Source: Clostridiales bacterium
GTDB lineage: Bacteria; Bacillota; Clostridia; Lachnospirales; Lachnospiraceae
Assembly (NCBI GenBank): GCA_029098165.1
Contig: JAQXNU010000206.1
Span: 1,567 to 65,566 of the forward strand
Direction of reading: 5' to 3'
Length of the DNA stretch: 64,000 nt
Of the stretch, positions 40,240 to 41,907 are shown in pieces. Numbering within the stretch: the stretch's first letter is position 1; each line of letters opens with the position of its first letter. The notes under the pieces are model-generated. The model was not told the origin of the DNA and searched no databases. It worked only from the letters and a program-made list of their open reading frames with translations. The position numbers were made by a program, and so were the translations under genes.

Positions 40240-40269
40240 TTGACAATTATAAACATAATGATTTATAAT
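40240..40269 (+). promoter_or_regulatory. Sigma-A promoter of the riboswitch leader
   Basis: TTGACA (40240), 18 bp, TATAAT (40264). Confidence 0.7.
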
Positions 40270-40284
40270 ATTACATATCGTGAA

Positions 40285-40402
40285 TAGGTTGAGCAAACTT
40301 ACAGAAATGTGAGGACGCAAAGCTCGAAGTCTAACAAAACAGAAATATCTGTTTTTATGATCGTTCAGCTGCAAAGTGTTTTATAACTTTGTAGCTTTTT
40401 TT
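40285..40402 (+). ncRNA. c-di-GMP-I (GEMM) riboswitch 1 with intrinsic terminator
   Basis: GCAAAC-TTACA-GAAA-TGTGAG-GACGCAAAGC...GTCTAA...ATGAT...GCTGC; terminator GCTGCAAAGT/ACTTTGTAGC plus T7. Confidence 0.9.
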
Positions 40403-40511
40403 ACGTTTATAAGAGAATACAAAGCTACGTACATAGGTGAAACAGTACAAAACGAGAAAATTGATGGATTCTGCGGGGATGAAATTAATAGAAGAAACTG
40501 TTGAAACTGAA

Positions 40512-40632
40512 TAGAAAGTGGGCAAACTTACAGAAATGTAAGGACGCAAAGCTTGAAGTCTAAGAAAACATAAGATTATATGTTTTTATGACCGTTCGGC
40601 TGCAAAGTTTAATTTACTTTGCAGTTTTTTTT
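40512..40632 (+). ncRNA. c-di-GMP-I (GEMM) riboswitch 2 with intrinsic terminator
   Basis: GGCAAAC-TTACA-GAAA-TGTAAG-GACGCAAAGC...GTCTAA...ATGAC...GGCTGC; terminator CTGCAAAGT/ACTTTGCAG plus T8. Confidence 0.92.
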
Positions 40633-40721
40633 ATTCAGTAATGTTGCTTTTTATCGAATAAGTGTAGTTATTGTGTTTCTTGTAGGCTATATCATTGATC
40701 AGTCAGGAAAGGATGAAAGGT

Positions 40722-41570
40722 ATGAAGGGGATATTATCATTTGTAAAAACTAATTTGGCTAAGGTACCATCCATGAAGTTAAATGGAATTCGAGAATCTC
40801 AGAATCACTATGACGAGGATACTTCTACAAGCTTTAAAGGAAACTTAGAGATTTCGGATGGAGTCATTGCGTTGGTAGCTCCAATGGGAAGAGATAATTT
40901 GATGGAGAGTGCTCAAGAGATTACGATGGAGGTAGCAGGAAATCGCAAAGAAGCCAAAGAAAATGTACAAGATGCTTTCTTGGATTTAGAACCAGTTGTA
41001 GAACCAGGTACTTTTCAAGTTAGCATCAATAAAAAGAATAATAATGATATTTCTGTTAATGGTGCTTTTTATGATACCCTTGTAAATACTTCCTACGATG
41101 TAATGGCTAAGATTGATAGTATCAAAGGGCAATTAGGACTAAATAATCCGGCAACAGAATTAGTGCTTGGAATGGAAAATGAGATTAGTTCTGTTAAGAC
41201 ATATCTATATAAACAGTATTATAAAAATATCGAAGTCCTTGGTTATACGGTAAAAGCGTCGATGGATTATAATGCAAATGAGTTAGGTATTGAATCTTGT
41301 TTAATCCAAAGTGAGGCACTTGTAAAGAATATTGAAACAATTGTTCCGAAGTTATCGGAAAAGGAGACAAGTGAATGGATTCGTACTCTGTATCCAGAAG
41401 CTACAAAGATTATATCTTCTTTGATCATTTATCCAGATAAATATGGTAAGAGTTTGAAATTAGCTTATCTGTCTTATCTTTATAATCAAAATGATCGTAG
41501 TAGAAGACAGCAGATTATTACGGATGCCAATACTGGAGAAATAATTTACGAAGATGATATGTGTTTTTAG
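40722..41570 (+). CDS. Stand-alone FTP/PepSY-like (M4/M36 protease propeptide-like) protein
   Basis: TYLYKQYYKNIEVLGYTV resembles the FTP motif; LIIYP..LAY...ITDANTGEII resembles PepSY. No HExxH. Confidence 0.6.
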   Translation: MKGILSFVKTNLAKVPSMKLNGIRESQNHYDEDTSTSFKGNLEISDGVIALVAPMGRDNLMESAQEITMEVAGNRKEAKENVQDAFLDLEPVVEPGTFQVSINKKNNNDISVNGAFYDTLVNTSYDVMAKIDSIKGQLGLNNPATELVLGMENEISSVKTYLYKQYYKNIEVLGYTVKASMDYNANELGIESCLIQSEALVKNIETIVPKLSEKETSEWIRTLYPEATKIISSLIIYPDKYGKSLKLAYLSYLYNQNDRSRRQQIITDANTGEIIYEDDMCF

Positions 41571-41644
41571 TCGGATGGAACTAGATGGTATCATATGCAT
41601 GGATTGATACGATGCGAGCCTTAATTTAATATATGGTTGCTACT

Positions 41645-41690
41645 ACAAGAAGATGGAGTCTAATTGCAAGGTTAGACTCCATCTTCTTGT
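41645..41690. terminator. Perfect 19-bp hairpin
   Basis: ACAAGAAGATGGAGTCTAA-ttgcaagg-TTAGACTCCATCTTCTTGT. Confidence 0.75.
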
Positions 41691-41907
41691 TTCATGGGAT
41701 GTTTCTATGTGGAGAAAAATTAATTCGAGATACTTCTACTTACGTCGTTGAATCTGATACATTTAATGGAGTAGAAACTTGTCAAATCAAACCCAAATAT
41801 GGCAAAATAAATAGAATTGATGCAAGTTGGCTTCAATAATTTGTTGAATAAATATAAAAATGCCATAAAAACTGTGAAAATTTTATAAAAATTAGTGAAT
41901 TTTTACA

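Follow-up and report, generated by a model that had tools for sequence, protein, structure and literature searches.

Tandem c-di-GMP-I riboswitches, probably two complete switches in series, precede a gene for a free-standing M4 propeptide-like protein in a Lachnospiraceae-type Clostridia genome

The leader of about 450 nt upstream of a gene for a 282-residue, M4 propeptide-like protein very probably consists of two independent, complete c-di-GMP-I riboswitches arranged in series behind one sigma-A promoter. This two-switch reading is based on the membership of both units in one RNA family, the covariation of their structure, the mutually exclusive pairing of aptamer and terminator, and the conservation of the module as a whole. 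From homology and structural logic we infer the identity of the ligand, the ON polarity, the shape of the dose response and the role of the protein.

When the window, that is, the whole 64-kb stretch of DNA analysed, was scanned against Rfam with cmscan, exactly two matches exceeded the gathering score, both to RF01051 (cut-off 35 bits) and both on the + strand, and the same two were obtained with permissive filters. The first-pass annotation had called two complete tandem c-di-GMP-I riboswitches, each with its own terminator, and had named Infernal with RF01051 as the check; both aptamers indeed match the model over its full length, at 60.4 and 68.9 bits, and each is joined to an 11-bp terminator. 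Two terminator-like hairpins were seen against 0.4 expected from shuffles. The spacing of about 230 nt between the aptamers was likewise accurate (229 nt from start to start), and the single sigma-A promoter that had been placed upstream matches the consensus perfectly, with no other in the spacer. On the + strand from this promoter to the ribosome-binding region of the gene, no second promoter-like site was found, the next one being at 40713, and the promoter is thus the sole promoter-like site predicted to feed the leader. From the position of the promoter, transcription is expected to start a few bases 5' of aptamer 1. Two aptamers of one class and two terminators therefore stand behind one promoter with no promoter-like site between them. 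The spacer itself is not conserved in the relatives, whose spacers are longer.

Table 1. Features of the leader, the regulated gene and its downstream hairpin (positions in the window)
Feature	Position	Strand	Details
Sigma-A/sigma-70-type promoter	40240..40269	+	TTGACA-18 nt-TATAAT, 12/12 consensus match
c-di-GMP-I aptamer 1	40282..40376	+	RF01051, 60.4 bits, E 2.4e-09, model 1-87/87
Intrinsic terminator 1	40367..40402	+	11-bp stem 40367-40396, dG -14.8 kcal/mol, T6 40397-40402
Spacer between units	40403..40510	+	no promoter-like site, no RNA family match
c-di-GMP-I aptamer 2	40511..40607	+	RF01051, 68.9 bits, E 2.1e-11, model 1-87/87
Intrinsic terminator 2	40598..40632	+	11-pair stem 40598-40626, dG -13.4 kcal/mol, T6 40627-40632
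Purine-rich RBS	40705..40713	+	AGGAAAGGA, 8 nt 5' of ATG at 40722
Regulated gene, free-standing M4 propeptide-like protein	40722..41570	+	282 aa, profile and fold evidence
Perfect 21-bp hairpin, then UUUC	41645..41693	+	-32.6 kcal/mol, z -8.75

All aptamer pairs (25/25) are canonical in both units. Aptamer 2 carries the three ligand contacts in canonical form (G20 at 40521, A47, and C92 at 40603). In aptamer 1 the consensus helices are all intact and the GAAA tetraloop, A47 and C92 are kept, with A (40292) at model position 11, the equivalent of G20 of Vc2. We aligned ten units of the subfamily, each comprising aptamer and terminator. The aptamer structure is 95.9% paired over these units, seven pairs have changed on both sides, and none of 500 shuffles reached its covariation score. 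Covariation thus supports a fold of two helices in which a GAAA tetraloop docks into a CUAAG/UAUG receptor; GAAA is invariant, and the receptor strand of aptamer 1 reads CUAAC, not CUAAG. This subfamily has at most a very weak P1 helix, so ligand-dependent stabilisation would rest mainly on P2 and C92.

The two terminators also consist entirely of canonical pairs (11/11 in both). It had been claimed that the 5' arm of each terminator, GCTGCAAAGT, overlaps the 3' strand of the aptamer, and the arm does hold the 3' strand of P2 and the C92 equivalent. Its first base, in (A/G)GCTGCAAAGT, is model position 78 of the aptamer. The arm (A/G)GCUGCAAAGU thus includes the four 3'-strand nucleotides of the P2 base (AGCU or GGCU), which are partners of AGCU at model positions 40-43, together with G82 and the C that pairs Watson-Crick with one ligand guanine (C92 in Vc2 numbering; 40372 and 40603). 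In unit 1 the arm reads AGCUGCAAAGU and carries the P2 3' strand, G82 and C92 of aptamer 1; in unit 2 it reads GGCUGCAAAGU and shares the corresponding P2 strand and C92 with aptamer 2. When AGCUGC is held by the aptamer, the leftover AAAGU/ACUUU hairpin is worth only -2.3 kcal/mol in unit 1 and -1.2 kcal/mol in unit 2. The ligand-free minimum free energy (MFE) fold is the terminator state in both (-37.3 and -35.9 kcal/mol, respectively), about 7 kcal/mol below an aptamer-like fold computed with the P2 base enforced and with positions 20, 82 and 92 kept free. Across the ten aligned units the terminator is 93.6% paired and shows one-sided (G-C/G-U) substitutions only, with no compensatory pairs, as expected for a helix whose 5' arm is constrained by the aptamer. 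In the MFE folds the 5' flank also pairs with the 5' strand of P2, as a possible apo-state helix; its register differs between the units and we do not claim it.

Since the bound aptamer and the terminator are mutually exclusive and termination is the default, each unit is predicted to be a transcriptional ON switch. By analogy, both units should behave like pilM, in which the terminator sequesters the C92 equivalent and which is an ON switch by experiment (PMC9262584), and like Bc3-5. The anatomy and its conservation thus back the earlier call of two ON switches, and the corresponding claim that the gene is expressed only at high c-di-GMP appears well founded. It is extremely unlikely that one or both units are OFF switches, or that they act on translation instead of transcription. 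Many clostridial c-di-GMP-I riboswitches are indeed OFF switches, for example Cd1 of C. difficile (PMC9262584), but in Cd1 the terminator and the bound aptamer coexist, whereas here the terminator itself uses the P2 3' strand and C92 and cannot form together with the bound aptamer; moreover, the RBS lies about 75 nt beyond terminator 2, outside both folds. In the ON-switch mechanism that we propose, a nascent aptamer that captures c-di-GMP would lock the P2 3' strand (A/GGCU) and C92 in the aptamer. If no ligand is captured, the downstream strand ACUUUG(C/U)AG(C/U)U would take A/GGCU and C92 to form the 11-bp terminator, followed by the U tract. RNA polymerase would have to pass both terminators, so the output would be the product of two read-through probabilities, and the two units in series would be expected to keep basal expression very low, to shift the response to c-di-GMP to the right and to make it somewhat sharper.

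Homologues of the protein were found in 2 of 13 congeneric genomes, the MAGs 'Bacillota bacterium OH_HBrB_158' and 'OH_CBB_19'. In both (loci L007 and L008) the same series of elements recurs: TTGACA-17/18-TATAAT, an aptamer with its terminator, a spacer, a second aptamer with its terminator, a GGAGG RBS and the orthologous gene. The leader is shared despite an identity of only 39% between the orthologous proteins. At alignment column 34 every first aptamer has G and every second one A, and columns 104 and 132 show a similar pattern. These copy-specific signature columns indicate that the duplication predates the three species and that the tandem has been inherited and maintained. A further homologue, in a Herbinix sp. 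MAG (L038), is located at a contig end, with its leader outside the contig. Among the genome contigs, the 3' motif TATGAYCGTTCRGCTGCAAAG was confined to the two congeneric MAGs, bar one Hyphomicrobiales match that we regard as chance, as it lies inside a coding region and has no Rfam match. A search of metagenome contigs with two patterns of the subtype gave no matches. In the congeners (L007 683-760 and 1049-1125; L008 2690-2600 on the - strand), a conserved hairpin (ATAGGAAAGTTC..GAACTTCCCTAT-like) and a GCGTCCAAAGGGAAGTACGCAATGATG box come after each terminator; this element has been duplicated with the unit in the genome G004 and is absent from the leader in the window.

A detail absent from the first-pass annotation is the A at the G20 ligand contact of aptamer 1, by which the two sensors are not equivalent. 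The nucleotide at this position reads the ligand at its variable base and serves as a marker of cGAMP-responsive variants (PMC9481103, PMC6140456). As A20, found here in aptamer 1 only, is the hallmark of GEMM-Ib cGAMP riboswitches, a two-ligand reading had to be tested, namely an AND gate that requires two signals, 3',3'-cGAMP (or a different dinucleotide containing A) read by aptamer 1 and c-di-GMP read by aptamer 2 (G20). Besides the A20/G20 pair itself, it is favoured by a tandem in another genus of the family (L047, 152-237 and 319-401; G151:C10:55501-55750), whose Rfam alignments give the same order, A20 first and G20 second. We consider the AND gate highly improbable, however. No cGAMP synthase, whether a Hypr GGDEF or a DncV/CD-NTase enzyme, was found in the genome (99.4% complete): the SMODS/CD-NTase search gave no match, and among the 18 GGDEF matches, which speak for c-di-GMP signalling in this genome, all domains whose GHxxGD motif can be read carry the canonical Asp where Hypr cGAMP-making enzymes have Ser/Thr. 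The four orthologous aptamers of the two congeners are all G20, so A20 is unique to aptamer 1 among the six. Position 20 also varies in another, unrelated riboswitch of the genus, being A in two species and G in a third, and this variation looks like drift or tuning, not like a switch to another ligand. In addition, Cbe 1-2 of Clostridium beijerinckii, a natural A20 aptamer, prefers c-di-GMP (30 nM) over cGAMP (463 nM), and the G20A mutant of Vc2 binds c-di-GMP at 53 nM and cGAMP at 120 nM, compared with picomolar binding by the wild type; A20 alone thus leads to bispecificity, not to cGAMP selectivity (PMC6140456).

By these analogies, it is most likely that both units read c-di-GMP, perhaps at different thresholds. 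Aptamer 1, with A at the Hoogsteen contact, would still bind c-di-GMP, as Vc2 G20A and Cbe 1-2 do, but less tightly, and would probably set the higher threshold. We also considered that the leader might effectively be a single switch, unit 1 being a decaying duplicate that persists as an unresponsive, constitutive partial terminator (attenuator) and unit 2 alone being regulatory. Aptamer 1 has the lowest score among the six tandem aptamers and carries four private substitutions where the alignment is otherwise invariant, A20 and the final base of CUAAG among them. Its score is still 25 bits above the cut-off, however, and unit 1 keeps every canonical pair of both aptamer and terminator as well as A47 and C92. 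A constitutive 11-bp terminator would also leave the gene mostly silent and should itself decay, and A20 aptamers bind c-di-GMP at tens of nM (PMC6140456), all of which makes the loss of unit 1 as a sensor very unlikely. As a point against the reading of two working c-di-GMP sensors, A20 and the three other private substitutions could reflect relaxed constraint rather than tuning. It seems unlikely that the A20-then-G20 order is a designed heterotypic tandem instead of drift, one that gates a diffusible protease-propeptide inhibitor through staggered thresholds or two signals; unit 1 would then be a low-affinity or bispecific sensor of high c-di-GMP, or of an adenine-containing dinucleotide from another source, and unit 2 a high-affinity sensor of c-di-GMP. 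If so, the same order in L047 would reflect convergent selection. RF01051 was present in 93 of 251 sampled genomes of the family, with tandems in at least three other genera; one of these tandems, L050, is A20 in both units. The L047 tandem lies upstream of a signal-peptide protein, and its unit 1 has a small terminator-like hairpin and its unit 2 may act on translation.

To describe the dose response, we modelled two independent ON units with an output equal to the product of their read-through fractions. With equal T50 values, EC90/EC10 fell from 81 to 40, corresponding to an apparent Hill coefficient of 1.19. The ratio was 55 when the T50 values were 10-fold apart and 75, essentially that of a single switch, when they were 100-fold apart. 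The steep threshold proposed in the first-pass annotation is thus retained in part: the model does sharpen the response, but modestly, and the gain is lost if the two T50 values differ by about 100-fold, so that the steepness would be moderate at best. The basal leak is squared in the model (10% per terminator becomes 1% overall), and this is probably a larger and more robust effect than the sharpening. If c-di-GMP-I riboswitches act under kinetic control, as is generally held, the loss of affinity associated with A20 may shift T50 only partly.

The regulated gene encodes a protein identical to database protein P0001. Its C-terminal ~180 residues probably correspond to FTP and PepSY domains, and its N-terminal ~100 residues are predicted at low confidence. 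At default thresholds it has no match in Pfam or NCBIfam (FTP, PF07504, reaches 13.5 bits against a threshold of 21), and a word-indexed protein search found only the protein itself. A paralogue in locus L009 passes for FTP (28.7 bits) and reaches 18.4 bits for PepSY (PF03413; threshold 24). A profile built from five homologues matched 1925 proteins; the best matches are mostly 800-1500 aa long, and the matched stretch lies immediately N-terminal of Peptidase_M4. Against the PDB, the same profile matched residues 76-218 of the thermolysin precursor (E 9e-8) and the propeptide chain of vibriolysin MCP-02 (E 3e-6). AlphaFold models residues ~102-282 with confidence but residues 1-101 without, and the predicted fold matches the MCP-02 propeptide (TM 0.60-0.63, rmsd 3.8-3.9 A), the PepSY domains of YpeB and the fungalysin propeptide. 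The protein thus resembles the MCP-02 (PDB 3NQY/3NQZ chain A) and thermolysin (5A3Y) propeptides in both profile and fold. In contrast to them, it is encoded alone and under riboswitch control: it contains no peptidase domain, the gene stopping at 41570, and is a free-standing homologue rather than an N-terminal stretch cleaved from an M4 catalytic domain.

The only M4 protease of the genome is encoded on another contig (G000:C174, L046), as a 1513-aa ORF without a riboswitch. It has two CBM2-like modules, an FTP/PepSY propeptide of its own, an HEFTH site and CarboxypepD_reg-like repeats. The orphan propeptide is 26% identical to the propeptide of this protease, which is the obvious candidate partner. 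It is plausible that the product inhibits or chaperones a thermolysin-type protease when c-di-GMP is high, although no signal peptide is evident in it, a caveat that sits awkwardly with inhibition of a secreted protease. This role suggests that protease activity is restrained post-translationally once the cell commits to the c-di-GMP-high, attached state. In C. difficile, the protease ZmpI and its adhesin substrates are regulated oppositely, and the arrangement in the window would echo that.

An N-terminal hydrophobic segment is absent from the protein in the window (40722-40800) and from the G005 orthologue. The G004 orthologue (L007 1168-1260), in contrast, begins with a membrane-anchor or signal-like stretch, MEIVFIVFIVVVAVLGFA, and localisation may therefore differ between orthologues. 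The G004 genome also contains two adjacent stand-alone FTP/PepSY genes (L009 317-2322, G004:C3) of 279 and 361 aa, with no riboswitch, the 361-aa protein having an aBig_2 domain; with these additional genes, orphan propeptide genes appear to be a small family in the genus. Downstream of the gene in the window, the perfect 21-bp hairpin probably ends a monocistronic transcript ahead of a V-ATPase operon, its weak U tail being the reason why a strict terminator scan missed it. It overlaps a probably spurious 68-aa ORF (41633-41839).

[quoted passage not shown] The triple tandem Bc3-5 of Bacillus thuringiensis CT-43 has been tested and responds 'more stringently and digitally' (Zhou et al. 2016, PMC4759541). 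Like the leader in the window, Bc3-5 and the catalogued doublets and triplets have complete c-di-GMP-I units in series within one 5' UTR, each with its own terminator overlapping the ligand-binding C, P1 and the 3' strand of the adjoining stem, and they are predicted or shown to be ON switches with a more stringent output. The leader in the window differs from Bc3-5 in having two units instead of three, in belonging to a Lachnospiraceae-type Clostridia MAG lineage, in the A20 of its first unit and in controlling an orphan M4 propeptide rather than cspABCDE. The pilM GEMM-Ib riboswitch of Geobacter metallireducens (PMC9262584) shares with it the exclusive pairing of aptamer and terminator and the sequestered ligand-pairing C, and shares A at position 20 with aptamer 1; unlike that leader, pilM is a single unit selective for cGAMP, and its genome encodes Hypr GGDEF synthases, none of which was found here. 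Vc2 G20A and Cbe 1-2 likewise keep a canonical GEMM-I fold apart from A at the G20 contact; they are bispecific by measurement (PMC6140456), whereas ligand binding by aptamer 1 is a prediction. The tandem TPP riboswitches of Bacillus anthracis (Welz and Breaker 2007), as they are cited in PMC4759541 and PMC9481103, also comprise two complete, independent units of the same class, with a 'pseudo-cooperative', more digital response; in those accounts they are metabolite-sensing OFF switches, whereas the units in the window are predicted ON switches for a second messenger.

The leader in the window is thus another example of a known arrangement, and the riboswitch finding by itself adds little. 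It does provide a clean, conserved natural case of ON riboswitches wired in series in an uncultured, plant-fibre-degrading Clostridia lineage, and it ties c-di-GMP to a free-standing thermolysin-propeptide gene. The A20/G20 pair is also a simple natural test of how a single ligand-contact substitution shifts the threshold of one element in a tandem.

The first-pass annotation had further linked the switch to a biofilm or sessile lifestyle. The genome's remaining c-di-GMP-I elements precede genes for a CBM2/TSP3 surface protein, a secreted protein and a large polytopic membrane protein; such targets would fit a surface or attachment regulon, in agreement with that link. The riboswitch preceding the large polytopic membrane protein (L005, G000:C279:2370-2460, - strand) matches c-di-GMP-I at 43.4 bits, has A for C at the C92 position (GCUGAAAAG) and lacks a clean terminator (6/11 pairs); this weaker match could be a degenerate aptamer or one of variant specificity. 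Upstream of the secreted protein lies a short-P3 riboswitch (L002, G000:C73:17854-17929), with counterparts in the other two species (L031 in G004, L029 in G005). It scores best as c-di-GMP-I-GGC (RF03167, 63.1 bits) despite having A, not G, at the diagnostic middle position, and its position 20 is A in two of the species and G in the third.
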